From Escherichia phage pinkbiff: a stretch of DNA of 64,000 bases. Positions 7,892-47,141 of the stretch are shown piece by piece (positions within the stretch are counted from its first letter, which is position 1; the number at the start of each line of letters is the position of its first letter). Location of the stretch: the sequence record MN850603.1; one strand, given 5' to 3'. The notes below the pieces were generated by a model. That model had not been told where the DNA came from. It did no database searches and saw only the letters and a list, made by a program, of their open reading frames with translations. The translations under genes were made by a program, and so were the position numbers.

Positions 7892-7968
7892 TGGTCTCTG
7901 TTGGAGGACTTGAACCTCCGGCCTTACCGCCCCAAACGGAACGCTCTACCAAGCTGAGCTAAACAGAG
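7892..7968 (-). tRNA. tRNA-Pro (UGG)
   Basis: Canonical D-arm GCTC-AGCTTGGTA-GAGC, T-arm GGAGG-TTCAAGT-CCTCC, CCA encoded, anticodon loop TTTGGGG. Confidence 0.75.
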
Positions 7969-8086
7969 ATAAACTTTTCAAACTCTATGTAACCACTTTA
8001 ACATTATTTTTTAGTGATTGTCAAGAACTTTTTTAAAATATTTTTCAGTATCTTAGAAAAGCTCTCATTTCGTTTCTATGTAGAAC

Positions 8087-17749: not shown

Positions 17750-19330
17750 AAATTTACGAAATTTATATTTTTATAAAATTTTATCGGTTGTCCCAACCTC
17801 TGGGTCACCATCATATGTGAATAAAATATCTATCCTTCTTAACAGCCTTCTTAATCTTACTCTCTATGTAGTTATATAGTACTATATAGTATCTTAGTAA
17901 CTATCTAGTGGTCTTAATAGCCCTCTGTATAACCCTTCTAACAAGCCCTCTAACAAGCCTTCTAAACACTCTTCTAACAAGCCTTCTTAACAACCTATAC
18001 AATCACCTTAATCATCCATCTACACCCTCTTAGAAGCTCCTATACACCTCTTAATCTCTAGGTTACCTATGTTACCCTCTATAGGTGTTCACTAGGTATT
18101 ACTAAGCCTCTATATAGACTGTTTTAACAAACTTAACAGGAATATCTTTACAGACCTTATCTCACAAGGTCTAACACGGTACTAACAAGGTATCTTATAA
18201 GCCTGTTTCTACCTGTATTTTTAAAATACTGTCTAGGTAATTATTCAGAATTTTAAAATTTTTATAAAATAGAGCTATCAAGTCATTTTTTAGGGTCTTT
18301 GAAGGAACTGAAAAATATCTGTCTAGGATGTATATCTGCTTGGTAGCCCTTAACAGCTCCCTTACAAGTACTTTGCAGAATTTTAAAATATCATTAACAG
18401 TTTCTTAACAGTTCTCACATCTTCTTAACAACTCTTCAAAGGTCTTAACAGATTCTTAACAGAACTAACAAGGGCTTAACAGTTTTCTAGGGATTGGTAA
18501 CAATACCAATTAACAAGTACTGAATAGGCTTTACAGAATCTTAACAGATGACTAACAAGAGCTAACAAGTTAATTTTAAAGAGTTATTTTGTTAAGATAA
18601 TTAACAAGTTCCTAACAAGTGTTTAATCTTTTTAACAAGCTATTAACATGGTCACTACTCTTTTCTTATCGTTCCCTTTCCTTTCTTAGTGACTTCTTAA
18701 ACATACCTCTTAAAAGCTCTTAAAAGCTCTTTATAGGCTCTTTTAAGTCCCTCCCTAGTATTTACCCCTCAACTGTATGGATAGCTCTTTATAGGGCTTT
18801 ACAGGAGCTTTTAAGGCTATGCCAAAGGTTCTTACAAGGTTTTTACGTGGTCTTAACAGAGATTTAACAAGGTGCTAACAAGAATAACTATGTAGGGTTT
18901 GTTAAGAAAATGTTAAAAAAATGTTAAGGGGGCTAGCATTTACGTAACTTTTAAGCTACTTCAAAGTAACTTTATAACCCCTATAACATGCTTTTTAATA
19001 GCTATCAAGGGGTTTGTTTAATCATTCACAAGATACTAGCCAGCCTATAAGCTTTCACCCTTATAAGATTCTTTTAAGGCTCTGGGAAGCTTTATAAAGG
19101 GCTTTTAAGGGTGAGGTAATGCAATCCCTTAAGTTAGGTTAATAAGGCCGTTATAGGGCTTTATAGAGCGTTTAAATGGTTGCCCTTCCCTTTCGGGTTA
19201 TGGGCTTATATTTAAGTTGATTTGATAAGAGGTTATAGAGTAGACTATAGAGTTATTGCTTTTTAAGGTCTAGTAAGATTCTGGAAAGGAAAGGGAAAGG
19301 GTTTGTATAAGGATTCGATAGACGTAAAAA
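17750..19330. repeat. 1.6 kb non-coding iteron-rich region (over 30 copies of CTTAACAG / CTAACAAG-type motifs plus CTTTTAAG / CTTTATAG motifs; AT-rich blocks)
   Basis: No ORF of any size with SD; dense short direct repeats at roughly 8-12 bp spacing (e.g. 17935-17995, 18395-18660, 18850-18880); bounded by convergent terminators. Confidence 0.8.
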
Positions 19331-19388
19331 AGCCCCTATGAGATAGATTCTATCGAATCCATTTTGAGTAGGGGCTGTTCAGGTATCT
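19329..19388 (-). terminator. rho-independent terminator ending the minus-strand small-gene array
   Basis: Minus strand: AGCCCCTA ... TAGGGGCT stem (30-nt loop, itself an inverted repeat) followed by TTTTTT. Confidence 0.55.
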
Positions 19389-19414
19389 GGGGCTATTTAG
19401 CCCCGTTGCGTCGA

Positions 19415-19663
19415 TTAGTTGTAACCTTGTTTGCTGTAGTACAGGGAGACAATCAAATCACCCCAGTAATGATAGTGATGCTCATCGTTTATGGCCTCTT
19501 TTACGGCATCTTTCCAGAAGTCATCAATAGGGTTATAGTCTGGGATAACTTGCTTGATAACTGTCTTCACTAAGGAAAAGCATTCATCAGTTCCGCCGAT
19601 ATCAAATTTAACGTCCAGAGTATAACAGCCATAAGCATTTACAGTAGCGCGGATAGTTGCCAT
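19415..19663 (-). CDS. hypothetical small protein (82 aa), cassette gene 1
   Basis: ATG at 19663 directly preceded by the conserved cassette ...CTAGGAGATTCAAAAATG. Confidence 0.6.
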   Translation of the reverse strand: MATIRATVNAYGCYTLDVKFDIGGTDECFSLVKTVIKQVIPDYNPIDDFWKDAVKEAINDEHHYHYWGDLIVSLYYSKQGYN

Positions 19664-19739
19664 TTTTGAATCTCCTAGTTTAAGGGTTTTATTTTAGTGG
19701 GGAAGTTCATTCCCTCCCCGTTGATTGACAATTTACAGA
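19664..19739 (-). repeat. conserved intergenic cassette, variant A (GGGGAGG hairpin)
   Basis: Minus strand: CTGTAAATTGTCAATCAACGGGGAGGGAATGAACTTCCCCACTAAAATAAAACCCTTAAACTAGGAGATTCAAAAATG; embeds the upstream gene's stop codon and this gene's SD and start. Confidence 0.8.
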
Positions 19740-20263
19740 TTTTTGATTGTCTCGTCAATATCTTTTTCAATATCTTTTAAAGTTTTTTCTAAGTTCTTGA
19801 TATTGAACGTTAAACCTTCACCGATGGTTTTAGCGTAACCGTTAGGTCGATGGTCGTAAAGCTCGATATCTTCCACATCGGATAAGTTTACTCTTTCACC
19901 GTTTGAAGCGTAAGCCATTGAAACAGTATTTACAGGGGCTTTATAAAACTTGTTTAAGGTCTTGATTGAACGCTCATAAGCCATTTTATAGCTATTTAAA
20001 AGGTTTTTAACGTGGCTATGAACGTTTTTGCACTCATCCAAGTAAATCCCTAAGAATAGCGGTAATAATTCTGCTACAGCTTGCATAAAGTGAGAGACTA
20101 CAACGGTTGCAGCATTGCGACGATGAACGTAATAAGCCCCGTTTTCTGATTTGGTGATGGTTGCGAAGTGTACACCATTGCAGCGAAATTCGTAGGTATC
20201 TTTGACAGGCTTTGACATTACAGCATTTGAACGAATATAGTTGATGGCTTTGAACTTGTTCAT
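19733..20263 (-). CDS. hypothetical protein (176 aa), cassette gene 2
   Basis: True start is the ATG after the AGGAGA SD (20263); the track N-terminal extension MTSPLNKTLKLGDSKM is a translation of the cassette. Confidence 0.6.
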   Translation of the reverse strand: MNKFKAINYIRSNAVMSKPVKDTYEFRCNGVHFATITKSENGAYYVHRRNAATVVVSHFMQAVAELLPLFLGIYLDECKNVHSHVKNLLNSYKMAYERSIKTLNKFYKAPVNTVSMAYASNGERVNLSDVEDIELYDHRPNGYAKTIGEGLTFNIKNLEKTLKDIEKDIDETIKNL

Positions 20264-20335
20264 TTTTGAATCTCCTAGTTTAAGGGTTTTATTTAGTGGG
20301 GAGGTCATCCATCCCGTTGATTAGTAATTTACTTG
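20264..20335 (-). repeat. conserved intergenic cassette, variant A (degenerate hairpin)
   Basis: Same TIR block (CTAGGAGATTCAAAAATG) and GGGGAGG-type hairpin with substitutions. Confidence 0.7.
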
Positions 20336-20423
20336 TTTTGATAGCTGATTGCAAGCAATTTTTTAAGCTTATCTATAAAGAACCTTTTAAGTGAATCCCT
20401 TTTAGAATAAACCCCCTCGAACA

Positions 20424-20452
20424 ACATTACCAATGTCAATAGGTATTGTCAA
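20424..20452 (-). promoter_or_regulatory. sigma70-type promoter inside the small-gene array
   Basis: Minus strand reads TTGACA (20452-20447), 17-nt spacer, TAATGT (20429-20424). Confidence 0.45.
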
Positions 20453-20484
20453 CACTTTTTTAAAAGTTTTTTATAAGTTATTGA

Positions 20485-20826
20485 TTAACTGATGGATATT
20501 TTTTCAGGTTTTACATAGTTGGCACGTTGGATTTTTAGCAGGTCATCCCAGATTAGTGCGGCAATATGAGCATAACCGGATTCACGTAGAAGCTTCATTG
20601 CTTTACTTCTCGTTTCAAATCGGTTTGCATAGTACTCACTATTCAGAGTTGTTTTCTTCCCTTCATTGTCTACATGAATAATCTGCATTACTTTGAAGGG
20701 GCTTACATCCTCGCCTTTATTCCATTGCTCAAAGTATTTTAGGCACTGCATAGGTGTCATCTTATCACTTACTTGAGTTGACCAAGATGAATCCGGTTTA
20801 TTGGTAATTACAGTTACGTGAGCCAT
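20485..20826 (-). CDS. hypothetical protein (113 aa), cassette gene 3
   Basis: Start at ATG 20826 after the conserved SD; track ORF carries the cassette-derived N-terminal extension. Confidence 0.6.
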   Translation of the reverse strand: MAHVTVITNKPDSSWSTQVSDKMTPMQCLKYFEQWNKGEDVSPFKVMQIIHVDNEGKKTTLNSEYYANRFETRSKAMKLLRESGYAHIAALIWDDLLKIQRANYVKPEKISIS

Positions 20827-20899
20827 TTTTGAATCTCCTAGTTTAAGGGTTTTATTTAGTGGGGAGGTCATTCCCTCCCCGTTGATTGACAATTTACAG
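20827..20899 (-). repeat. conserved intergenic cassette, variant A
   Basis: Near-identical to 19664-19739. Confidence 0.8.
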
Positions 20900-20916
20900 A
20901 CTTTTATCAGGCTTGT

Positions 20917-21150
20917 CTAGTCTTTTTCAATGATAATTTCATATTGACCATCAACACTATCAAAATAAATGCCGTCGTCGTCTTCTGTCTTAAAGTAGCA
21001 TTGAATATCATCACTTGCGGGGTAGTCTTGCCTTGCTATCTGGCAAACTTGAATAGCATTTTCTTTACTTCCTGTAAACTCCTCAAGCCCTTTAAAATCG
21101 CATGAATGACCATTACAGATGGAAAGGATGAGATAAATGGTTGTAAGCAT
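20917..21150 (-). CDS. hypothetical small secreted/membrane protein (77 aa)
   Basis: Hydrophobic N-terminus; preceded by its own hairpin (agcccct-acaa-ggggct) rather than the standard cassette. Confidence 0.5.
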   Translation of the reverse strand: MLTTIYLILSICNGHSCDFKGLEEFTGSKENAIQVCQIARQDYPASDDIQCYFKTEDDDGIYFDSVDGQYEIIIEKD

Positions 21151-21215
21151 GACTTAAGCCCTCTAAAAGCCCCTACAAGGGGCTAATTAGTGTTTATAAG
21201 GTGATTATATAGGTT

Positions 21216-21758
21216 TTAGAAAAAGCTCTTTAAATCTCTCTCTGTGATGTTTCCTGTCAGTGTGTCCATGATGTCACAAAAAACCTGAATACTGTCCGAC
21301 TGTTGAACGCTTTTAGCAAGAAGTTCCAGAGACTCATCAAGATAGTTTAAATTTGGGTTATCCAGTGAAGGAAGACAAAAAGGCGAAAACATCGCATTAA
21401 ACTCGGTTACGTAAACCTTTTTAATCCAACTTGCATCAAAGTACTCTGTAAAACTTGCCACGCCAGACATATTATCACAAGAATAATCATCATTCAGCTC
21501 ATCCTCTGGAATATCAAGTTCCAAGATAACAATATTTTGAGTTTTCATCTGGAAAGCTGCGGTGATAGCGGCATTGCCTAATGCTTGCTGGATACCTTCA
21601 GATGCTATCTCTTCCGCATCGTCGCCATAGATTTTATTTTCTGGATATACGTAAAAATTCCCATCCATATCCGAACAATTCCATGCGCCTGATGGTTTAT
21701 CGCCGTTATTAATCAGGTTGAGGAAGTTTTCTTGAGTAGTACCGTGAAAGCATTTCAT
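21216..21758 (-). CDS. hypothetical protein (180 aa), cassette gene
   Basis: ATG 21758 preceded by the conserved TIR. Confidence 0.6.
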   Translation of the reverse strand: MKCFHGTTQENFLNLINNGDKPSGAWNCSDMDGNFYVYPENKIYGDDAEEIASEGIQQALGNAAITAAFQMKTQNIVILELDIPEDELNDDYSCDNMSGVASFTEYFDASWIKKVYVTEFNAMFSPFCLPSLDNPNLNYLDESLELLAKSVQQSDSIQVFCDIMDTLTGNITERDLKSFF

Positions 21759-21845
21759 TTTTGAATCTCCTAGTTTAAGGATTGAGTGGTAAAGCTCTTT
21801 ATCTGGGGCTTAAGATATCAACTTTTAAGCCCCCTGTAAAGTACT
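21759..21845 (-). repeat. conserved intergenic cassette, variant B (GGGGCTTAA hairpin)
   Basis: Minus strand: CTGTAAAGTACTTTACAGGGGGCTTAAAAGTTGATATCTTAAGCCCCAGATAAAGAGCTTTACCACTCAATCCTTAAACTAGGAGATTCAAAAATG. Confidence 0.8.
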
Positions 21846-22049
21846 TTATCGGTTATTTTTGACAACTTTTAAAACAGCACGGTAACCTAAGCAATAGGAA
21901 TCACCGAAGAGCGACCGACCCATGAAGGAGTCCTCTGTAATATCTTTCGCCGTGACGGTTTTTTCTACGCCGTGAAAAAGAACTACATCCCCGGCTTTAA
22001 TGTCTTTGATGTGTGTGGTTTCAATGGTTAAGCCGTTAATAATAGCCAT
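21846..22049 (-). CDS. hypothetical small protein (67 aa), cassette gene
   Basis: Start at ATG 22049 after the conserved SD; track ORF has the cassette-derived extension. Confidence 0.55.
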   Translation of the reverse strand: MAIINGLTIETTHIKDIKAGDVVLFHGVEKTVTAKDITEDSFMGRSLFGDSYCLGYRAVLKVVKNNR

Positions 22050-22125
22050 TTTTGAATCTCCTAGTTTAAGGGTTTTATTTAGTGGGGGGCTGGTCATTCC
22101 CTCCCCGTTGATGTGTAACTTAATA
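22050..22125 (-). repeat. conserved intergenic cassette, variant A
   Basis: GGGGAGGGAATGACCAGCCCCCC hairpin variant plus conserved TIR; a TTGACA -35-like hexamer lies just upstream (22147-22142, minus). Confidence 0.75.
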
Positions 22126-22156
22126 TATATATAAAAACCAGTGTCAACAAAAATTT

Positions 22157-22561
22157 TTAAAGTTCTGCATAAATTGCATCACAGATATTACGGAAGTCGT
22201 GATTTGACAAATTACGCTGCAACCAAGTGGCGAAAAAGTCAGCGATTGCATAATTAGCATCATACTCGACGGATAGCCATACTTTTACGGCGAATCTGAA
22301 CATTTTTAAATCAAGCTCTTTATTCATTACCTTAGATTTGCCCAACATGTCAGCCATTTCATATTGCGCACCGTCTAGCGTGATACCTGCTGCAACGTCA
22401 GTTAATGAGTTTTTCACGTTTTCAACGTCTAAGATAACACTTTGAATCTTCCCAATAATGTTGTGCAATGTTTCATCAGGTGCTGATGATGTCAGAACAT
22501 TAATCCGGTTAACTGTCAAACGTGCTTTTAAGATTGATAACTCACGGTTATTAATAGCCAT
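22157..22561 (-). CDS. hypothetical protein (134 aa), cassette gene
   Basis: ATG 22561 preceded by the variant B cassette. Confidence 0.6.
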   Translation of the reverse strand: MAINNRELSILKARLTVNRINVLTSSAPDETLHNIIGKIQSVILDVENVKNSLTDVAAGITLDGAQYEMADMLGKSKVMNKELDLKMFRFAVKVWLSVEYDANYAIADFFATWLQRNLSNHDFRNICDAIYAEL

Positions 22562-22648
22562 TTTTGAATCTCCAATTTAGGATTTAGTGGTAAAGCTCTT
22601 TATCTGGGGCTTACTTTATCGAACTATAAGCCCCCTGTAAAGTACTTT
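22562..22648 (-). repeat. conserved intergenic cassette, variant B
   Basis: ctggggcttactttatcgaactataagccccctgtaaagtac on + strand. Confidence 0.75.
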
Positions 22649-22921
22649 TTATACTAAATGCAGTTTTTTACCTTTTACTATGATGTAACTTGATGCGCTA
22701 TTACTTTGCACATCTTGATAAATTCTACGCAAACGGCCTTTATAGTATACTTTCCAACTGGTTGGAATCTTTTTCCCGTATCCTGTAGCAGTTTTTTGCA
22801 GTCCTGCAAGTTGCCAATCTAAGATATGTTGTTCGGCTTGTAAATCCTCGAAGTGCATTACACCGTTCACATAGTGACGAAGGGTTACGTTTAAGGTGCG
22901 ACCGTTGTTAGTAGTATACAT
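22649..22921 (-). CDS. hypothetical protein (90 aa), cassette gene
   Basis: ATG 22921 preceded by the variant A cassette. Confidence 0.6.
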   Translation of the reverse strand: MYTTNNGRTLNVTLRHYVNGVMHFEDLQAEQHILDWQLAGLQKTATGYGKKIPTSWKVYYKGRLRRIYQDVQSNSASSYIIVKGKKLHLV

Positions 22922-22995
22922 TTTGAATCTCCTAGTTTAAGGACTTTGTTTAGTGGGGAGGTCATTACCTCCCGTTGATTAGTAATTTACTTGTT
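22922..22995 (-). repeat. conserved intergenic cassette, variant A
   Basis: GGGGAGG...CCTCCC hairpin plus conserved TIR. Confidence 0.75.
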
Positions 22996-23340
22996 TTAAA
23001 AACCAAAATCAAGAGAAATTTTTCGTTTGCTCAATTCTTGAACAATTACAGTGTAATAGTCTTTCAAATCACTGACATTTAAAGCATTTATCAGAGAATT
23101 ATAATCATCAACTAACTGAAAATTATCTTTGAAGATGTCACTTATCTGATAGGTTTTCGCTTTATATCTGAAGCTCATCTCTAGCCGCTTTATTTGCTCA
23201 TCACTGAGGCGCCCTAGAAAGCTTTCTACAAGGCTATTACTAACCTGCTGTGTGATTGCCTTATTTGCTAGATTATAGGCTTTATATGCCTTATATAGCG
23301 CGAAAATGGCAATGATTGCAGTGATACCAGTCATTAACAT
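22996..23340 (-). CDS. hypothetical membrane protein (114 aa)
   Basis: N-terminal transmembrane helix; own SD GAGGAAA; no standard cassette upstream. Confidence 0.55.
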   Translation of the reverse strand: MLMTGITAIIAIFALYKAYKAYNLANKAITQQVSNSLVESFLGRLSDEQIKRLEMSFRYKAKTYQISDIFKDNFQLVDDYNSLINALNVSDLKDYYTVIVQELSKRKISLDFGF

Positions 23341-23413
23341 GGTGTTTCCTCTTTACGTGATACTTTGCCATTTACAGTTATCTCATAGGATTCTAATAAA
23401 TCGCTTTTAGACT

Positions 23414-23629
23414 TTACAGGACTTTTAAAAGTATCATCATAGATATTAACTTGCAATACAGGTTTTTATACTCCCTGCAACTGTTCCATAAGCAAATCAC
23501 TACACGACGGCCTTTTATTTTGCCGTGTAACCATTCCATAACATCATGATTATTCCTTGATGTTTCAATGAAATCAATTTTGTTGAGTAATTTGCTTAGA
23601 TTTTCACGCACTTGATTTGATAATTTCAT
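23414..23629 (-). CDS. hypothetical small protein (71 aa), cassette gene
   Basis: ATG 23629 preceded by the variant B cassette. Confidence 0.55.
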   Translation of the reverse strand: MKLSNQVRENLSKLLNKIDFIETSRNNHDVMEWLHGKIKGRRVVICLWNSCREYKNLYCKLISMMILLKVL

Positions 23630-23721
23630 TTTAGAATCTCCTAGTTTAAGGGCTTTATTTGATAAATCTCTTTATCTGGGGCTATCCTACCAGCTTGATA
23701 ACCCCGTGTAAAGAAATCTAT
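23630..23721 (-). repeat. conserved intergenic cassette, variant B (diverged)
   Basis: tctttatctggggctatcc...ccccgtgtaaag plus conserved TIR. Confidence 0.7.
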
Positions 23722-24234
23722 TTAGTTCTTAAAGATATTCATCACTGAATCTTTTAGTGATTCCAAACGTTCTAATACTTCAGATTCTGCGTCTGAATTG
23801 TTCACCTCTTCTTTTAGTCTATCCTCTAAATCAACGCCGTCGCTATAGCACCAATCGAAAGCGTAACCAATAAAAAAGCTGTCTAAAACCGTTTTACCGT
23901 TTTCATCTACAACTTTTGCGGCTAGAAGGTATTCTGAAGCCTCTAAATCCCTTTCTAGTTCTCTTTGTAAGCTGATATAAGCCTCTTTTGAAGGGTTTTC
24001 CCGGCCTTGTTTTGCATAGTCGCTTGAAAGCTGTTTAAGGCTGTAATGTAAAGGGATTGCATATTTAAAAGCACCATAACGATAGTTGGGGTTTTTAATA
24101 GTCACACCGCCTTTATGGTCATCTGTAAACTTCCAATAATCAAGATTATAGCTTGATTCGTAGCAATTTACCGCTTCGTAGATGATGGAAAATTTTTCTT
24201 TTACAACTTCAAAGGTAGCGTCTACAGTTTTCAT
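23722..24234 (-). CDS. hypothetical protein (170 aa), cassette gene
   Basis: ATG 24234 preceded by the variant B cassette. Confidence 0.6.
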   Translation of the reverse strand: MKTVDATFEVVKEKFSIIYEAVNCYESSYNLDYWKFTDDHKGGVTIKNPNYRYGAFKYAIPLHYSLKQLSSDYAKQGRENPSKEAYISLQRELERDLEASEYLLAAKVVDENGKTVLDSFFIGYAFDWCYSDGVDLEDRLKEEVNNSDAESEVLERLESLKDSVMNIFKN

Positions 24235-24319
24235 TTTTGAATCTCCAGTTTAGGATTAAGTGGTAAAGCTCTTTATCTGGGGCTTAAGATATCAACTTTT
24301 AAGCCCCCTGTAAAGTACT
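24235..24319 (-). repeat. conserved intergenic cassette, variant B
   Basis: Nearly identical to 21759-21845. Confidence 0.8.
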
Positions 24320-24613
24320 TTATTTGTTAATTTTCAGCTTTGCATAACCTCTCATTGTACGAATGGGGGATGTTAATGCTACGCGTCTAATGTATGCCTT
24401 TTTCGTGTATACATTTGTCTTCCCGATAGTGTTTACACATGTAAAAAGGTTTATCGGTGAATTTTTTAACTTCAAATGTTTATCAACCTTTACGCCCCAT
24501 CTTACAGCGGATTGTTTTCCGTTGTCAACCACTTTCCCGCCTAACTTTTTCGCCATGATGCGAGCGTCATCACGAGTTTTTGCAGGAATTACAACGTTTT
24601 TGATAATAGCCAT
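24320..24613 (-). CDS. hypothetical protein (97 aa), cassette gene
   Basis: ATG 24613 preceded by the variant A cassette. Confidence 0.6.
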   Translation of the reverse strand: MAIIKNVVIPAKTRDDARIMAKKLGGKVVDNGKQSAVRWGVKVDKHLKLKNSPINLFTCVNTIGKTNVYTKKAYIRRVALTSPIRTMRGYAKLKINK

Positions 24614-24685
24614 TTTTGAATCTCCTAGTTTAAGGGTTTTTATTTAGTGGGGAAGTCATTTCCTCCCCGTTGATGCAAATACTAG
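24614..24685 (-). repeat. conserved intergenic cassette, variant A
   Basis: GGGGAAGTCATTTCCTCCCC hairpin plus conserved TIR. Confidence 0.8.
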
Positions 24686-24870
24686 ATAACCCCGTTCGAA
24701 TAGTCAAGAAAAATTTTAAAAATATTTTTGGCAAAATTGTAATGAAACGGGTGCGCGCGACTACCACAAAACAGAGCTACAATCAAGAATTATTTTTCAA
24801 TCCGCTACAAATTTTTCTGTTGACTTTTCTTTTCGGATGTGGTAGCCTTGTGAGAAATGGCGACATCCCT

Positions 24871-25070
24871 ACCTGCACCCACCTACCTGCACAATTCTAA
24901 AATGATTTTTCTTGCCCGACCTGATTTTTCTCTGCACGTTTTGAAAATGAAAAAGCTCTTTGGAGATTACCTGCACAGTTTGAAAATGAATTTTCTCTTT
25001 GGAGTTCAAAATTCTCTCTACAGATTTCTCTATAGAAATATACCTGCACAATTCTGAAATGAAAAAGCCC
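24871..25070. repeat. array of 4-5 direct repeats, consensus CCTGCACARTTYTRAAATGAAWWAG
   Basis: Copies at about 24886, 24932, 24969 and 25042 (partial at 24871) in a 480-bp ORF-free interval. Confidence 0.7.
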
Positions 25071-25135
25071 TCCTTACCTGAAAAATTTACCAGATAAGAA
25101 AGGCTTAGTCTATTGTGAGTATTTTACAGAGTTTC

Positions 25136-25921
25136 TTAGTTCTTTGCGTCTAAGAAGGTAAGCTCTGGTGAAGAGAAGATTAACTCGATATCCTCATCAG
25201 TTCTCGCATAGATATAAGTATCTGCATCACTGCCAAATGTTACTGCAATCCTGTGATTGCTCTTCGACAGGTGGGTAACTAGAGCGTTACTTAGAGACAT
25301 CTTTTCAACCGGAGGGTTACTTTGATGTATCTTACCTTTTCTTCGTCTGAAAAGGGTAACTGCATTATCCGTGAACACTGCTACACCTGCAAAGTATTCT
25401 GGTTCACAGTAGTTCTTCCAACCTGAGAGTAACTTGTGGTACATCTCTCCTTCATAGACATACAGATAAACATCTACACTCTTCATGACCTGATTGATGA
25501 TAACTGTGACAGCTTGAGGGTCGAGTCCACCGATACCTGCACCAATCATAGGTAGACCGACTTTCTTCAACTGGTTAACTTCACAGTATCTGTTAAGCTG
25601 TTTCAAAGATGACTCTAAAGCACTGTATCGTGCATCTTTACCAGTCTTAAGCTGAGTGTAAAGGTTAGCTATACGGCCTTGTTTTAAACGTGCTACAGAG
25701 GAATTACCCAGTAAATTTTCACAGGGTTTGTGTCCTATACCACCTGCATATAGATAAACTTCTGTATCGGTCTCATATGCTTTTGGGTAAAGTTTAGAAA
25801 TCTTGTCAGCGATACCTGCACCCATTAAATTCATACAGTTGCAACCGTGACCGATGATGTCAAACTTACCTTTATCAAATGCGGAAAAGATATCACCGTT
25901 GATAATTTTTACAATACCCAT
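25136..25921 (-). CDS. macro-domain protein (ADP-ribose binding/processing), 261 aa
   Basis: N-terminus G-D-I-F ... D-I-I-G-H-G-C-N-C-M-N-L-M-G-A-G-I-A matches the macro-domain glycine-rich ADP-ribose pocket; extra C-terminal domain of about 100 aa. Confidence 0.7.
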   Translation of the reverse strand: MGIVKIINGDIFSAFDKGKFDIIGHGCNCMNLMGAGIADKISKLYPKAYETDTEVYLYAGGIGHKPCENLLGNSSVARLKQGRIANLYTQLKTGKDARYSALESSLKQLNRYCEVNQLKKVGLPMIGAGIGGLDPQAVTVIINQVMKSVDVYLYVYEGEMYHKLLSGWKNYCEPEYFAGVAVFTDNAVTLFRRRKGKIHQSNPPVEKMSLSNALVTHLSKSNHRIAVTFGSDADTYIYARTDEDIELIFSSPELTFLDAKN

Positions 25922-25922
25922 A

Positions 25923-26123
25923 CTAATAATGCTCCCAACGTTGCATGTCTTCGGATGGTTTTACACGGTTACCCTCATGGTCTACATAACCTGCACCACA
26001 ACCTTCACAGATAACTGGCATAGCTGAACCAGCTTCAAACTCTTCTTTGGTGAAGAGACCTTTCAAGTCCCCTGTATCAACACCAAAATGTTCTATTGCA
26101 CACTTCTTGCAGAAATCAGCCAT
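25923..26123 (-). CDS. small zinc-ribbon-like protein (66 aa)
   Basis: ATG 26123 with AAGAGG SD; CxxC ... CxxC pattern. Confidence 0.5.
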   Translation of the reverse strand: MADFCKKCAIEHFGVDTGDLKGLFTKEEFEAGSAMPVICEGCGAGYVDHEGNRVKPSEDMQRWEHY

Positions 26124-27182: not shown

Positions 27183-27423
27183 ATGTTAGTACCTCTTTTG
27201 TATGCTTATTCTTAGCAAGCACATCCTTCAAATCATTTTTGTAATTGGTGCTCAATGTTACTAATCCTTCCTGATAAGCATCTTTAGCAACACTTATGAG
27301 CTTTTGATTGTTTAGCTCAGTTTCAGCAACTTGATAGTCTCTGTAAGAGTATCCTCCCCAGACACCTGCCCCAACTAAGAAAACAATTATGAAAGTAGCT
27401 TGACAGAACTCTTTAAATGTCAT
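27076..27423 (-). CDS. putative i-spanin-like protein (115 aa)
   Basis: N-terminal transmembrane helix then a polar periplasmic-type domain; its 3' 107 nt overlap the lipoprotein gene. Confidence 0.45.
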   Translation of the reverse strand: MTFKEFCQATFIIVFLVGAGVWGGYSYRDYQVAETELNNQKLISVAKDAYQEGLVTLSTNYKNDLKDVLAKNKHTKEVLTYEKTKPEFYNVCVTDNYVRVFNEQSEQYIQKLPSK

Positions 27424-27439
27424 TTAACAATCTCCTGAA

Positions 27440-27464
27440 ATGAAAAAGGCTCCCGAAGGAGCCT
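27440..27464 (-). terminator. rho-independent terminator
   Basis: Minus strand: GGCTCC-TTCG-GGAGCC followed by TTTTTCATTT. Confidence 0.65.
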
Positions 27465-27475
27465 GTATCTTAACC

Positions 27476-44860: not shown

Positions 44861-47095
44861 CTAAACACCACAGCCCTCGCAATAAGCATCTTGCAGTGCA
44901 GATTTACCTACACCAATGCGACTGTTAAGGTAGTACATGGTTTTCATACCTACCGAGTTGGCATAAATCATGTACTTCAAAGCTTGAGCCAATGATACCT
45001 TCTTAGACTTTGCATAGTCAACATAGAAGTCTGAAGAGATAGCCTGACCAGTGAACTTTTGAACAATTGCATAACAATCAATCATATCAAAGGTGTCAAT
45101 ATCCCAAGCAATTTCATAGACATACTTCAGTTCTTCATAATCTGGAACAATAAACAGTACGTTACCAGTTGCAGACTTTTTAGTTAAAATAAAGTCACGA
45201 ATTGGGTACAAGCCATTTGTCGTATTAGTTGCTAGTGAAGAACTCTCATTAGGCATGTAAGCTTCTAATACAGAGTTTCGGATTCCACCATTCTCTTTGA
45301 TACGTTGTGCTAAGTCATCCCAATCATATCTTAGTTTTGCATCATGCTTTTCATCAATCTTCTTGTTAGCTGTCTTTGGAGGAACCCAGCCTTCAGGATA
45401 CTTAGTGAACTTCATGTACTCTGGAACACCACGCTCTTTAGCAAGTCTCAGAGAGGCTTCATGCAGATAGTAAGAGTGCATCTCTGCAAGTTCATGAAGC
45501 TTCGTCTTACCTGCTCGTGAAGAGTAGTTCACGTAGTTCTTCGCAAGGTAATGAGCCACATTTGTAAGGCCAATCCCAACAGAACGACGCTTCTGAACAT
45601 GGTTACGCATCGACGGATACGGATAATCCATAAGGTCAATAACGGAGTCAACCATTGCAAGAGCATAATAAGCAACGTCAGCGTATTCATCTTCTGAAAT
45701 TCTCCCTGCAACCAAACTAGCTAGGAAGCAAAGAGCCACCTCACCATCCTCTTTCACAGCATCGTCTCTGTAAAGGTCTGTCTCTTTCTCAAAACCATAC
45801 ACTGGCAACACAATTTCCATACAAAGATTTGACATCTTCAATGGTTCTTTAAATGGTGTATGTGTGTTTGCATTGTTAGTGAAGAATGGATACACACGAC
45901 CTGTAGCATAACGCTGTTGAATAAACAGCTTAGCAATTTCACGAGCCTTGACTCGTCTGTGCTTAACTCCTGAATGTACTGCGTGACCAACTGCCATAGC
46001 AAACTCATCAGCAGATGCTGTGTAGAACATGTCATAGAGTTTTGGTGCATCTTTGTAAGAGAATAGCAACCAATCTGTATCATACTGAACACACTGCCAG
46101 AAATAATCGTTTGTGCCGAATGAGTAGTCCATCTCATTAATACGTTTAGAAGGAACCGTTGTAGGGTGCTTCAAACGCAGTAAATCTTCAATCTGCGGGT
46201 CTAGAGCAGTGTAGAAGTTATTAGCTGAACCACCACGACTCTTCTGTTTGTTTGCCTCTACAGATGAACGTACAAGCTTATAATAAGGCAGCTTACCCAT
46301 GTGTTCAATAGTATTTTGACGGATGCCATCACCAATAGTGCGAGTCTCCATCAGCATCCCAATACCAGCTTGCTTTGTGGTCATGTCATAGGCAACCTTT
46401 GCAGCAATACCTAGAGATTCAGCAGTATCATTCGCCTTAATCAAACAGCATGACGCATAACCTGATTTAGTAGCTCTTAAACCGTTTAAATAAGGTGTAG
46501 GAGCATTAATCTTCAGGTCAGATAGATAAGTGTACAGCTTGATAACATCTTGCAGTCTACGGTGCTTTGGTTGCTTCTCAAAGGCTTTCATAGCCATACC
46601 CATAAACATAAATTGCGGTGACTCAAAAAGTCTTCCCGTTTTAATATCACGGATACCATACTTGTCTCTGAACTGTTTCAAGACTGCATAACCGTAAGAG
46701 ATATCTTTTGAGTGTACGATGTAACCTTGCAGGTATTCAAGCTCTTCCTGTGAATAGTCCATCTTCTCCCAAAGTCCCGCCCTCTCCATGTTTTTAACGA
46801 AGGTAACCAGCGTAGGAACCTTAGTAAAGCCTCCAAAGGCTTCTTTGTAGATAATACCCAAAAGCAGTCGTCCAGCCATATCTGAGTACTCTTGAGTTTG
46901 TTTATCAACACAAACATCAATCATGGCTTGGTGCATCTCTTTTGTAGTGCAACCCTCATAGACACGTTTCATGGCTTCCATAGTGACTTCTGACCAGATA
47001 ATTCCACGCTTATCTGCCCATGATGCCCATTTATTCAGTCTTTCTGGGTCAAAGCTTACTACTGTACCATTTGATTTTTTAATTGTCTTAATCAT
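44861..47095 (-). CDS. nrdA: ribonucleotide reductase large (alpha) subunit, class I
   Basis: 744 aa; N-terminal ATP-cone-like region, C-terminal Y-x-x-x-C-E-G-C tail with the redox cysteine pair. Confidence 0.88.
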   Translation of the reverse strand: MIKTIKKSNGTVVSFDPERLNKWASWADKRGIIWSEVTMEAMKRVYEGCTTKEMHQAMIDVCVDKQTQEYSDMAGRLLLGIIYKEAFGGFTKVPTLVTFVKNMERAGLWEKMDYSQEELEYLQGYIVHSKDISYGYAVLKQFRDKYGIRDIKTGRLFESPQFMFMGMAMKAFEKQPKHRRLQDVIKLYTYLSDLKINAPTPYLNGLRATKSGYASCCLIKANDTAESLGIAAKVAYDMTTKQAGIGMLMETRTIGDGIRQNTIEHMGKLPYYKLVRSSVEANKQKSRGGSANNFYTALDPQIEDLLRLKHPTTVPSKRINEMDYSFGTNDYFWQCVQYDTDWLLFSYKDAPKLYDMFYTASADEFAMAVGHAVHSGVKHRRVKAREIAKLFIQQRYATGRVYPFFTNNANTHTPFKEPLKMSNLCMEIVLPVYGFEKETDLYRDDAVKEDGEVALCFLASLVAGRISEDEYADVAYYALAMVDSVIDLMDYPYPSMRNHVQKRRSVGIGLTNVAHYLAKNYVNYSSRAGKTKLHELAEMHSYYLHEASLRLAKERGVPEYMKFTKYPEGWVPPKTANKKIDEKHDAKLRYDWDDLAQRIKENGGIRNSVLEAYMPNESSSLATNTTNGLYPIRDFILTKKSATGNVLFIVPDYEELKYVYEIAWDIDTFDMIDCYAIVQKFTGQAISSDFYVDYAKSKKVSLAQALKYMIYANSVGMKTMYYLNSRIGVGKSALQDAYCEGCGV

Positions 47096-47109
47096 TTTTG
47101 AATCCTACA

Positions 47110-47137
47110 GATGAAAAGAGCCTCCGAAGAGGCTCCC
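47110..47137 (-). terminator. rho-independent terminator
   Basis: Minus strand: GAGCCTC-TTCG-GAGGCTC followed by TTTTCATCTG. Confidence 0.6.
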
Positions 47138-47141
47138 TAGT

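Follow-up and report, generated by a model that had tools for sequence, protein, structure and literature searches.

The window analysed here, 64,000 nt of Escherichia phage pinkbiff (MN850603.1), belongs to a Felixounavirus (Felix O1-like phage) and matched 251 phage records. It contains an AT-rich array of 12 small open reading frames (ORFs), taken from the ORF list and located at 19415–24613 on the minus strand, as are all features described below. In array order these are ORFs 1–4 (24320–24613, 23722–24234, 23414–23629 and 22996–23340), ORFs 5–8 (22649–22921, 22157–22561, 21846–22049 and 21216–21758) and ORFs 9–12 (20917–21150, 20485–20826, 19733–20263 and 19415–19663). None of the 10 array proteins tested matched a Pfam family, all nine tested fell into PHROGs of unknown function, and every array protein falls in a protein cluster of its own. 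Orthologues of the array ORFs are present in Bas63 (genes 0098–0111), and gene 23414–23629 corresponds to a 98-aa gene in frameshifted form. Upstream, the array is preceded by a terminator with a 17-pair stem and a T-tract, found by the terminator scan (25065–25106), whose sequence matches Felix O1 terminator t13 (PMC3185647). It is closed by a stem AGCCCCT..AGGGGCT followed by T6, read from the sequence (19326–19376), in the place where Felix O1 has a terminator following ORF23 (Table 2, PMC3185647). Since hairpins with U-tracts border the array, the phage appears to use ordinary terminators where termination is expected. A further canonical terminator-like hairpin, AGCCCCTTGTAGGGGCT followed by TTTT, lies between genes 21216–21758 and 20917–21150 (21164–21184); the scan reported this stem on the opposite strand.

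Ten of the 12 intervals upstream of the array ORFs carry a cassette of ∼85–105 bp, of either type A (six copies) or type B (four copies), confirming the 12-gene array with ten cassettes of two variants described in an earlier note made from the sequence alone. As that note also proposed, the cassettes embed the upstream stop codon and the downstream Shine–Dalgarno sequence (SD) and ATG. Type A cassettes stand before the genes with starts at 24613, 22921, 22049, 20826, 20263 and 19663, and type B cassettes before those with starts at 24234, 23629, 22561 and 21758. The two genes without a cassette, starting at 21150 and 23340, each always travel with their upstream partner. Both types end in a common leader, CCT(T)AAACT(A)GGAGATTCAAAAATG, within which the 25-mer CCTTAAACTAGGAGATTCAAAAATG occurs eight times at ≤3 mismatches (six exact), always on the minus strand and inside the array; 100 shuffles yielded no match. 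The remaining two cassettes (22559 and 24232) have a short leader variant, CCTAAA(C/T)TGGAGATTCAAAAATG, so that the earlier description of this end as invariant was slightly overstated. With its strong SD, 8-nt A-rich spacer and favoured second codons (GCU/AAA), such a standard leader would support uniformly efficient translation.

Every cassette (10/10) also contains a σ70-type −35/−10 pair at a fixed distance from the hairpin, with a spacing of 17 nt in nine of the ten. In type A the order is an A-tract, TTG(A/C)(C/A)A, 17 nt, TAAAtT, 7 nt and then AAC with a GGGG..CCCC hairpin, which begins 3–4 nt downstream of the predicted start. The first type A cassette (24611–24716, before gene 24320–24613) has an A/T-rich tract upstream of −35 TTGACT (24702–24707), a 17-nt spacer and −10 TAGTAT (24679–24684), a promoter flagged by the promoter scan, with a predicted start at ∼24671–24672, hairpin GGGGAGGAAATGACTTCCCC (24649–24668), SD (24621–24626) and ATG (24611–24613); the feature thus ends at ∼24716 instead of the 24690 first proposed, as its −35 reaches 24707 and the A-tract lies beyond. 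In the cassette at 22919–23021 (before gene 22649–22921), −35 TTGATT (23007–23012) lies inside the 3′ end of gene 22996–23340 and is followed by −10 TAAATT (22984–22989), a predicted start at ∼22976, hairpin GGGAGGTAATGACCTCCC (22956–22973) and SD (22928–22933). The cassette at 22047–22156 (before gene 21846–22049) combines −35 TTGACA (22142–22147) and −10 TAAGTT (22117–22122) with a predicted start at ∼22109, an imperfect hairpin (CCAGCCCC, 22086–22106) and SD (22057–22062); its spacer is 19 nt because of a (TA)n expansion, and relatives have a 17-nt spacer and TAAATT. At 20824–20928 (before gene 20485–20826), the TAG of −35 TAGACA (20914–20919) is the stop codon of gene 20917–21150; −10 TAAATT (20891–20896), a predicted start at ∼20883, hairpin GGGGAGGGAATGACCTCCCC (20861–20880) and SD (20834–20839) follow, and the 5′ UTR fold has z = −2.39. 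The cassette at 20261–20363 (before gene 19733–20263) carries −35 TTGCAA (20349–20354), −10 TAAATT (20326–20331), a predicted start at ∼20318, a degenerate hairpin GGGATGGATGACCTCCC (20299–20315) and SD (20271–20276). In the last one (19661–19767, before gene 19415–19663), −35 TTGACG (19753–19758) lies inside the coding 3′ end of gene 19733–20263, whose stop TAA is contained in −10 TAAATT (19730–19735), with a predicted start at ∼19722, the hairpin at 19699–19719 and SD at 19671–19676. The spurious N-terminus MTSPLNKTLKLGDSKM that the earlier note had recognized appears in ORFs 19733–20308, 20485–20892 and 21846–22097 and originates from an AUG in the type A hairpin loop.

Type B cassettes have a different layout: TTTACA, 17 nt and TAnnnT, often with an extended −10 (TGn), and here the GGGG..CCCC hairpin spans the spacer and the −10, placing the predicted start just downstream of the hairpin. 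At 24232–24322 (before gene 23722–24234) we found −35 TTTACA (24309–24314), −10 TATCTT with TGn (24286–24291), a predicted start at ∼24278, the upper hairpin (24279–24308), SD (24242–24247) and ATG (24232–24234), and the read-through RNA would form a bipartite hairpin at ∼24264–24322. The cassette at 21756–21848 (before gene 21216–21758) has the same elements (−35 TTTACA, 21835–21840; −10 TATCTT with TGn, 21812–21817; predicted start ∼21804; upper hairpin 21805–21834; SD 21766–21771), with a bipartite hairpin at ∼21790–21848 (MFE −29.8 kcal/mol, z = −3.45). In the cassette at 22559–22649 (before gene 22157–22561; −35 TTTACA, 22636–22641; −10 TAAAGT, 22613–22618; predicted start ∼22605; upper hairpin 22606–22635; SD 22569–22574), the lower stem extends, through its 5′ arm, as far as the stop codon of gene 22649–22921. 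The short-hairpin subtype is found at 23627–23720 (before gene 23414–23629; −35 TTTACA, 23707–23712; −10 TAGGAT, 23684–23689; predicted start ∼23677; SD 23637–23642). Its hairpin GGGGTTATC..GATAGCCCC (23678–23705) is compensatory with respect to CTTAA/TTAAG, and a 13-bp lower stem ATAGATTTCTTTA/TAAAGAGATTTAT extends it to a full hairpin at 23663–23720.

Promoter-like matches are common because the DNA is AT-rich (26 in the region versus 17.8 ± 4.3 in shuffles), and the promoter scan flagged seven of the ten cassettes at the expected place, the other three falling below threshold. Conservation across eight Ounavirinae genomes of four genera, in which paralogous and orthologous copies form non-independent samples, points to promoters. 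In 39 distinct sequences upstream of type A hairpins from the eight genomes, the −35 begins with T (38/39), T (35/39) and G (38/39), and the T, A and T of the −10 are each present in 39/39. An AAAAA tract occupies −45 to −41, and the 17-nt spacer holds little information (most positions <0.3 bit, range 0.00–1.01). TTGNNN/TAnnnT is kept across at least six unrelated spacer families, and the −35 often falls within unrelated coding 3′ ends. TTTACA-17-TAnnnT is present in all 24 distinct type B hairpins and in the four Erwinia phage (Kolesnikvirus) copies with the same 29-nt geometry; the 17-nt spacing is the same whether the hairpin is of the 28-nt or the 29-nt subtype, and TA is invariant amid an otherwise variable loop. 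The type B boxes lie in a wholly conserved block and partly in the stem, so that their conservation alone cannot separate a role in DNA from one in RNA. Phage HP1 (L005 position 4013) has a hairpin-less fusion of promoter to leader, which we read as modularity. The earlier note had placed two σ70-like promoters in longer gaps. Both are present, one being the TTGACA of the 22047–22156 cassette and the other a cassette-free TTGACA-17-TAATGT read from the sequence (20424–20452), 120 nt upstream of the cassette of gene 19733–20263 and annotated as a promoter in phage AYO145A; such promoters are, though, not limited to these gaps. That each cassette is an independent promoter, the outcome the note had named as one that would refute its reading, is what these pairs indicate, though only at the level of sequence evidence. 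We found no 5′-end mapping or reporter data for Ounavirinae phages in the searchable literature. Felix O1 encodes no RNA polymerase, and its array ORFs 16, 20, 21 and 22 peak 5 min after infection; ORFs 14, 17, 19 and 23 peak at 25 min by RT-PCR, which counts against an early-promoter reading.

The same order of elements defines the promoter-early stem-loops (PeSLs) of T4-like phages, which are gene-shuffling cassettes: a stop codon, an AT-rich tract, −35/−10 boxes and a GN-loop-CN stem-loop between the boxes, over the −10 or after it, then SD and ATG, with reported consensus promoters TTTACW-N17-TAYWAT and TTGYVH-N17-TAWWAT. The pinkbiff cassettes match this architecture in having a promoter, a stem-loop, and SD and ATG after an upstream stop. 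We found no description of a PeSL-type element in the Felix O1-like phage group, which by this analogy would be a new setting for a known kind of element. PeSL stem-loops are reported as efficient terminators, one of them lowering expression of a downstream lacZ to the extent that rrnB T1 does, and the XTG1 record annotates type A hairpins as opposite-strand rho-independent terminators. Even so, it is very unlikely that the cassette hairpins act mainly as terminators or attenuators on either strand. Downstream of them stands ACUAAAUA in type A and AGAUAAAG in type B instead of a U-tract, and the terminator scan flagged none, bearing out the earlier view that they are not classical terminators; canonical U-tract terminators are used at the array borders. 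On the gene strand the stems include G-U pairs, and the sense fold is better than the antisense fold in 31/33 type A and 29/40 type B variants. Nor can the type A hairpin be an efficient terminator, because its own transcript would abort. The termination part of the PeSL analogy may therefore fail.

Selection on the GGGG..CCCC stem-loop probably acts on RNA, and on the gene strand. The type B upper stem has 7–10 bp in 24/24 variants, with pairing in 97% of cells (slid controls ≤57%), double changes at pairs 7, 8 and 9, and pair 3 changed from GC to UA in the Erwinia phage; lower-stem pair 8 alternates between GC and TA. The covariation check suggested earlier thus found covarying stems (type B score 0.130 versus 0.059 in shuffles, reached by 0/500). 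Read-through RNA of type B is predicted to fold into a bipartite hairpin of ∼20 bp, with a lower helix of 6+5 bp, an upper one of 9 bp and a 3×3 internal loop (MFE −28 to −30 kcal/mol, z ∼−3.4), and the 3′ side of this loop coincides with the AGAUAAAG block, invariant in 42/42 type B copies. T7 RNase III sites have a similar two-helix, internal-loop form. This fold, the covariation in both helices and the invariant block would fit one to a few long early RNAs, made from two or three promoters and cut, like T7 early RNA, into monocistronic messages at RNase III-type (or other endonuclease) hairpins; the promoter-like hexamers would then be incidental. We consider this unlikely as an account of the array, as it leaves unexplained why, in a variable loop, TA is invariant and TGn frequent at exactly 17 nt from TTTACA, why the TTG of the −35 is conserved upstream of type A within coding sequences that are unrelated, and why a hairpin-less promoter–leader fusion exists. 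RNase III cleavage is unlikely for type A, whose stems of 4–8 bp are too short, and may occur in type B. The mRNA-stabilizing role that the earlier note offered beside RNase III-type processing is plausible, especially for type A, given the closeness of its hairpin to the transcript's own 5′ end (start position identical in 32/34 variants).

The type B repeats might also be operators, at which a dimeric phage or host regulator shuts off early promoters: TAAAGTACTTTA is fully palindromic and has a near copy, TAAAGAGCTTTA, at +3 to +14, so that two boxes bracket the promoter core, and AGATAAAGAG is invariant beyond pairing needs. This is highly improbable, since three stem sequences coexist in one genome with complementarity kept and sequence not, the arms of the short subtype, read as direct repeats, have diverged (7/12) yet pair 12/12 with wobbles, and the G-T pairs are strand-specific.

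Collinear across the eight genomes, the arrays vary in that cassette-plus-gene units are inserted or deleted, cassette types are swapped and junctions are chimeric. Depending on the phage, the same gene may be preceded by type A or by type B, leader variants are mosaic among orthologous genes, and at a three-gene deletion Felix O1 carries a chimeric cassette. Mosaic leaders and chimeric cassettes could also arise in selfish or neutral repeats homogenized by gene conversion, with an ordinary SD as their only regulatory role. We hold this to be extremely improbable, because the cassettes keep a constant placement with respect to stop and start codons, their promoter geometry and stem pairing persist despite sequence change in four genera, and every copy precedes a gene in a single orientation; cassette motifs were not found outside the array in the 64-kb window or in a complete 85.9-kb relative genome.

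We therefore favour the reading that PeSL-type expression cassettes probably make up the array, which would be a hyperplastic early region in this Felix O1-like phage. The gene behind each cassette, or sometimes a gene pair, would thereby become an autonomous unit, with a predicted promoter for host σ70 RNA polymerase overlapping the stop codon of the upstream gene. Transcripts started by a type A cassette would be capped at the 5′ end by its hairpin, and we infer that this protects them from 5′-end-dependent decay. The type B hairpin spans the spacer and the −10 and hence can form only in read-through RNA from upstream; its place would be the 3′-terminal part of the upstream message, where it may serve as insulation, attenuation, or a 3′-end or processing structure. 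Near-identity between cassettes spans 60–100 bp and may provide the homology for recombination through which cassette-plus-gene modules would be added, deleted and swapped.

The 5.3-kb array region matched 251 phage records at ∼90% identity, nearly all of them from Felixounavirus, the Felix O1-like myoviruses of Escherichia, Salmonella and Shigella. The minus strand carries all 12 array ORFs (19415–24613), and the encoded proteins are mutually unrelated. None of the 10 proteins tested had a Pfam match, and PHROGs assigned no function, since all nine tested fell into PHROGs of unknown function. The earlier note had described near-identical cassettes in two variants between these genes, and this was borne out: we counted 10 copies in 5.3 kb, with type A (GGGGAGG..CCTCCCC) in six intervals and type B (GGGGCTTAA..TTAAGCCCC or a variant) in four. 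The 25-mer CCTTAAACTAGGAGATTCAAAAATG had eight matches at ≤3 mismatches (six exact), all on the minus strand within the array, compared to zero occurrences in 100 shuffles, and no cassette motif was found elsewhere in the 64-kb window. As also proposed, the cassette embeds the upstream stop codon together with the downstream SD and ATG, the latter two at the 3′ end of every copy. The conserved SD/start leader itself is shared by all cassettes, but two of them carry a 2-nt shorter form, CCTAAA(C/T)TGGAGATTCAAAAATG. Generally, the cassettes end in (A/T)CCT(T)AAACT(A)GGAGATTCAAAAATG, comprising GGAG, an 8-nt A-rich spacer and ATG, with mostly GCU or AAA as the second codon, and this leader looks like a standard, efficient translation-initiation region. 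The recurrent N-terminus MTSPLNKTLKLGDSKM was indeed artifactual, its source being an AUG within the type A hairpin loop. We rejected this AUG as a real start, as GGAGG lies only 2 nt before it, within the stem, and cassettes with the 2-nt shorter leader do not keep the frame.

To compare the cassettes across phages, we used the copies of the window together with those of AYO145A, XTG1, Felix O1, tootiki, HP1, SUSP1 and Mordin (46 type A and 46 type B copies), of which HP1, SUSP1 and Mordin are Mooglevirus and Suspvirus phages. Among 50,697 phage records, the cassette was confined to the Ounavirinae (Felixounavirus, Mooglevirus, Suspvirus and Kolesnikvirus). In the complete 85.9-kb genome of the Felixounavirus phage LF82P5, the leader occurs six times, with every copy in its array. 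Type B had no copy in E. coli genomes and is therefore not a host-derived repeat.

Upstream of the array, with respect to the direction of transcription, a macro-domain ‘phosphatase’ gene is followed by a canonical terminator (25065–25106) that equals t13 of Felix O1. The terminator closing the array, read from the sequence, consists of a hairpin and T6 (19326–19376), and a convergent, repeat-rich intergenic region lies downstream of it. Here, the end of the Citrobacter phage HP1 record aligns with positions 18342–19282 at 75%, and the aligned part takes in the 570-bp terminal repeat annotated for HP1, so the array probably abuts the physical terminus of the genome and is transcribed towards it. 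The same interval is rich in short CTTAACAG/CTTTATAG-type repeats. Inside the array, a canonical terminator (hairpin and TTTT, 21164–21184) lies between genes 21216–21758 and 20917–21150, splitting a gene pair that always moves as one module; the second gene starts 12 nt past the hairpin and has a weak SD.

Further features of the region were noted. Gene 23414–23629 (71 aa) and the ORF at 23334–23456 (40 aa) look like a single frameshifted 98-aa gene (23334–23629), which is intact in six relatives and 95 aa long in a seventh, overlapping the start of the next gene there; the frameshift reflects either a pseudogene or a sequencing error. The 221-nt gap at 20264–20484 contains an extra strong promoter sequence, TTGACA-17-TAATGT (20424–20452), 120 nt upstream of the next cassette. 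A 46-aa gene is annotated at this place in Mordin, of which the window keeps only a 36-aa ORF starting with TTG. Between the upstream terminator and the first promoter of the array, positions 24860–25080 hold four to five direct repeats of the form TACCTGCACA(A/G)TT(C)TGAAAATGA. The annotation of relatives places small opposite-strand ORFs at the counterpart of this interval (Bas63_0096/0097, Mordin gp014), and the repeats could represent several protein-binding sites and not a gene. Directly after the last gene, an orphan cassette-like hairpin, CAACGGGGCTAAATAGCCCCAGATAC (19383–19412), combines a type A head with a type B tail, has no leader or gene behind it and may be a deletion relic. Outside the array, a different standard junction is present at 27421–27470 and ∼47093–47140, where a terminator (GGCTCCTTCGGGAGCC or GAGCCTCTTCGGAGGCTC, then a T-tract) runs straight into SD and ATG.

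The earlier note had named two promoters, in longer intergenic gaps, and had not recognized the predicted promoters of the cassettes in general. For type A, we built a profile of 39 distinct upstream sequences anchored on AACGGGG. It contained an AAAAA tract at −45 to −41, a −35 element at −36 to −31 (T in 38/39, T in 35/39 and G in 38/39, then A/C, C/A and A), a 17-nt spacer of low information (<0.3 bit at most positions; range 0.00–1.01) and a −10 element at −13 to −8 (T and A in 39/39 each, then A, A, t and again T in 39/39), followed by ATC, AAC. This layout of UP-like tract, −35, 17-nt spacer and −10 is that of a predicted sigma70 promoter, with the predicted start at the C or A immediately before AACGGGG. 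The −35 often lies within coding sequence, in the unrelated 3′ end of the gene upstream, and at least six unrelated spacer families each retain TTGNNN and TAnnnT. The stop codon of the upstream gene sits in the −10 (CTG TAA ATT) or in the −35, as exemplified by the −35 TAGACA, whose TAG doubles as the stop of gene 20917–21150; Mooglevirus and Suspvirus copies use TGA as this stop, with a canonical TTGACA after it. In a single HP1 cassette, TTGACA-17-TAAATT is fused straight to the leader without a hairpin, and the cassette parts are therefore modular. A candidate second promoter (TAAATA) 3′ of the type A hairpin was discarded by eye, having no −35 at the proper distance.

The type B cassettes follow the order TTTACA, 17 nt, TAnnnT, 6–7 nt, AGATAAAG. 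Their −10 hexamers are TATCTT, TAAAGT, TAGGAT, TATGAT, TAAGAT and TAGTAT, in which TA is invariant although the rest of the loop varies, and most copies have an extended −10 (TGn). The 17-nt distance from TTTACA is kept whether the hairpin is of the 29-nt or the 28-nt subtype; what differs between the two is the distance from the −10 to the hairpin end. The layout was also present in Erwinia phage Fifi318 (Kolesnikvirus), with TAGTAT or TAATCT. The upstream stop codon can fall in the TAAAGT arm. We also considered this TAAAGT of the 5′ arm as the −10 of a promoter further upstream, which would have given type B the layout of type A, and rejected it, as positions −67 to −62 showed no −35 conservation. 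Globally, a generic promoter scan flagged seven of the 10 window cassettes at the expected places. The region-wide promoter count was not significantly above that of shuffled sequences (26 versus 17.8 ± 4.3), and the case for the promoters therefore rests on their fixed geometry in non-homologous contexts. The predicted starts are at window positions 24671, 24278, 23677, 22976, 22605, 22109, 21804, 20883, 20318 and 19722. In the AYO145A record, only 2 of ∼13 cassette promoters are annotated.

Arrays were collinear in eight genomes from four genera and differed in that units consisting of a single cassette and a single gene were present in some and missing from others. Two gene pairs always travel together, and the second gene of each pair has no cassette. 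The association of gene and cassette is variable: the MAIIKN.. and MAYVTV.. genes are preceded by type A or type B depending on the phage, one gene may bear different type A promoters in different phages, and the long and short leader variants show a mosaic distribution over orthologous genes. Felix O1 lacks three of the window genes (20917–22049), and the cassette at its junction combines the promoter of window cassette 22047–22156 with the coding start of gene 20485–20826, the deletion crossover falling in the shared hairpin and leader. In other Felixounavirus genomes, coverage of the window array ranged from 99% down to 33%. Mordin has two tandem type B elements with no gene between them (7918–8022), which fits unequal recombination between cassettes.

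We then analyzed the hairpins. When the stems were aligned and checked for covariation, as the earlier note had suggested, those of type B were found to covary. The upper stem retains 7–10 pairs in 24/24 distinct variants, with double changes at pair 7 (TA/AT), pair 8 (AT/TA) and pair 9 (AT/CG/TA), and pair 3 changes from GC to UA in the copies of the Erwinia phage. In a gap-free alignment of 27 sequences, 97% of cells were paired, and the covariation score of 0.130 (0.059 in shuffles) was reached by 0/500 shuffles; in a control with slid partners, pairing fell to ≤57%. Since the MAFFT alignment had the 1-nt gap of the short subtype within the stem, pairs were counted by script from the hairpin ends and the covariation tool was applied to the main subtype only.

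In read-through RNA, type B is predicted to fold into a bipartite hairpin ∼12 nt past the stop codon (MFE −28 to −30 kcal/mol, z ∼−3.4), with helices of 6, 5 and 9 bp and internal loops of 1×1 and 3×3. The lower stem pairs TAAAGU-A-CUUUA with UAAAG-A-GCUUUA, one pair alternating between GC and TA, and is followed by the 3×3 internal loop and the GC-rich upper stem. On its 3′ side, the internal loop falls on the invariant AGAUAAAGAG, as does the predicted start. The 5′ end of the predicted type B transcript itself is unstructured (z = +0.43). In 32/34 distinct variants, the start of the type A hairpin is 3 nt 3′ of the anchor A, which itself lies 7–8 nt 3′ of the −10. Type A stems are 4–8 bp long and differ in sequence (GGGGAGGG..CCUUCCCC, GGGGC..GCCCC, GGGA..UCCC), and the fold leaves the SD unpaired.

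G-U pairs are frequent in the hairpins on the gene strand, and in 31/33 type A and 29/40 type B variants the fold is better in sense than in antisense orientation, indicating that the structure is selected in the mRNA-sense strand. These two observations argue against a DNA palindrome bound by a dimeric protein, and likewise an opposite-strand terminator, as suggested by the XTG1 record, where type A hairpins are annotated as rho-independent terminators on the non-coding strand. In line with the earlier claim that the hairpins have no U-tract and are not classical terminators, type A hairpins are followed by ACUAAAUA and type B hairpins by AGAUAAAG, and a terminator scan flagged none of the cassette hairpins. 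Strong termination by them is doubtful given the missing U-tract; canonical terminators are used by the phage at the array borders and once inside (21164–21184). Searching 18000–26000 against Rfam 15 at a permissive threshold returned one sub-threshold chance match, off all cassettes.

The type A hairpin would form a 5′ cap structure of the cassette's own mRNA. It is unlikely to be an efficient terminator, since termination would abort its own transcript, and the most economical reading of its role is 5′-end stabilisation. The E. coli ompA and T7 phi10 leaders have 5′-terminal stem-loops that stabilise mRNA, and type A would resemble them in having its hairpin 3–4 nt from the predicted 5′ end and the SD unpaired; in contrast, type B transcripts would lack such a cap hairpin (z = +0.43). 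Because the predicted start lies just past it, the type B hairpin would exist only in RNA reading through from the upstream unit, where it could serve in attenuation, insulation, 3′-end protection or endonucleolytic processing.

The last of these bears on the proposal of RNase III-type processing in the earlier note. RNase III sites of T7 have two helices and an internal loop, and type B is likewise predicted to form two helices around an internal loop (∼20 bp in total). The array as a whole also resembles the T7 early region, which lies by the genome end and has small genes split by conserved non-terminator hairpins. However, T7 early genes share three upstream promoters, whereas each gene here has a predicted promoter of its own, and the type A hairpins, with stems of 4–8 bp, are far too short. 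The RNase III idea is thus unlikely for type A and survives for type B, on account of the T7-like two-helix form and the coincidence of AGAUAAAGAG with the predicted start, as an additional and not an alternative function. We consider it rather unlikely that type B has a dual use, as a DNA promoter set within an RNase III-type bipartite RNA hairpin, with types A and B together forming a portable expression unit. If so, initiated and processed transcripts would share one 5′ end (AGAUAAAGAG...), the upstream message would retain a protective 3′ hairpin, and both types would constitute a recombination-competent expression unit for anti-host ORFans beside the genome terminus. Overall, the observation made in the earlier note is confirmed, and its interpretation is partly supported.

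The closest known counterparts are promoter-early stem-loops (PeSLs), described in the T4-like phages RB49/phi1, PST/T4 and nt-1/KVP40 (Arbiol et al. 2010, PMC2839356; Comeau et al. 2014, PMC4122927). A PeSL is a ∼100-bp motif extending from the upstream stop in an AT-rich tract to SD and ATG, with sigma70-like boxes and a GN-loop-CN stem-loop between the boxes, over the −10 or after it; PeSLs are enriched among ORFans of hyperplastic regions, have demonstrated promoter and stem-loop terminator activity, and mediate indels and mini-circles (PMC2839356; PMC4122927). Their consensus promoters are TTTACW-N17-TAYWAT (PST/T4) and TTGYVH-N17-TAWWAT (PMC2839356; PMC4122927), the first of which is matched by TTTACA-N17-TAnnnT of type B. 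The cassettes described here are likewise ∼100-bp intergenic repeats, concentrated in a variable ORFan region whose content differs between relatives. They start at the upstream stop codon and end at SD and start codon, and have −35 and −10 boxes 17 nt apart, recognized by sequence alone, with an AT-rich tract upstream. A G-run/C-run stem-loop spans spacer and −10 in type B and follows the −10 in type A, and the segments that differ between relatives have cassettes at their borders, with chimeric junctions, as in the three-gene deletion of Felix O1. All architectural and comparative features of PeSLs were found, a likeness in sequence layout that need not reflect common ancestry. We conclude that the cassettes are putative PeSL-type promoter, stem-loop and ribosome-site cassettes in two local variants, with the predicted hairpin either after the start (A) or bipartite and enclosing the promoter (B).

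Several differences from PeSLs are nevertheless apparent. The phage is a Felixounavirus (Ounavirinae) and not T4-like, which we treat as a matter of scope and not of architecture; the cassette principle has already been described, and it is the taxon that differs. PeSLs occur in several hyperplastic regions, whereas every copy here is in one array beside the genome terminus, and the 23–25-nt leader is nearly identical in all copies. Furthermore, the type A hairpin is positioned after the predicted start, type B has an additional lower helix, and a U-tract is absent.

Parts of the cassettes had been noticed before. The Felix O1 genome paper lists 57-bp and 39-bp sequences only as direct repeats (Whichard et al. 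2010, PMC3185647); the former, CTTTACATGGGGCTTAAAAGTCTGTAAAGTAAGCCCCAGATAAAGAGCTTTACCACT, is the type B core, and the latter, TTGACACTGGTTTTTAGATAGATTAAATTACACATCAAC, a predicted type A promoter. The paper names five other promoters and calls transcriptional regulation unknown (PMC3185647). Felix O1 encodes no RNA polymerase, and its array ORFs 16, 20, 21 and 22 peak 5 min after infection. Our literature search found no transcript start sites or RNA-seq for Felix O1 or Felixounavirus, and no paper linking PeSLs to the Ounavirinae. The phiEa21-4 genome reportedly contains a conserved terminator dispersed through it, which appears to be a different element.

Reading the cassettes as promoter, stem-loop and ribosome site yields ten testable early start sites, and with them the first testable early-promoter map for a widely used phage group, as Felix O1-like phages serve in typing and biocontrol. 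It would also explain why the content of the array region varies so strongly among the ∼250 sequenced relatives. In Bas63, the array orthologues are genes 0098–0111 (64.6–70.5 kb), at the start of a ∼66–80 kb stretch that, according to the Bas63 paper, consists of small hypothetical genes differing in essentiality. For engineering, the cassettes would be natural insertion points and ready-made expression parts. Finally, they would carry the PeSL concept beyond T4-like phages into an unrelated myovirus group, in support of the idea that virulent phages generally acquire and shuffle accessory genes by means of standardised regulatory cassettes.
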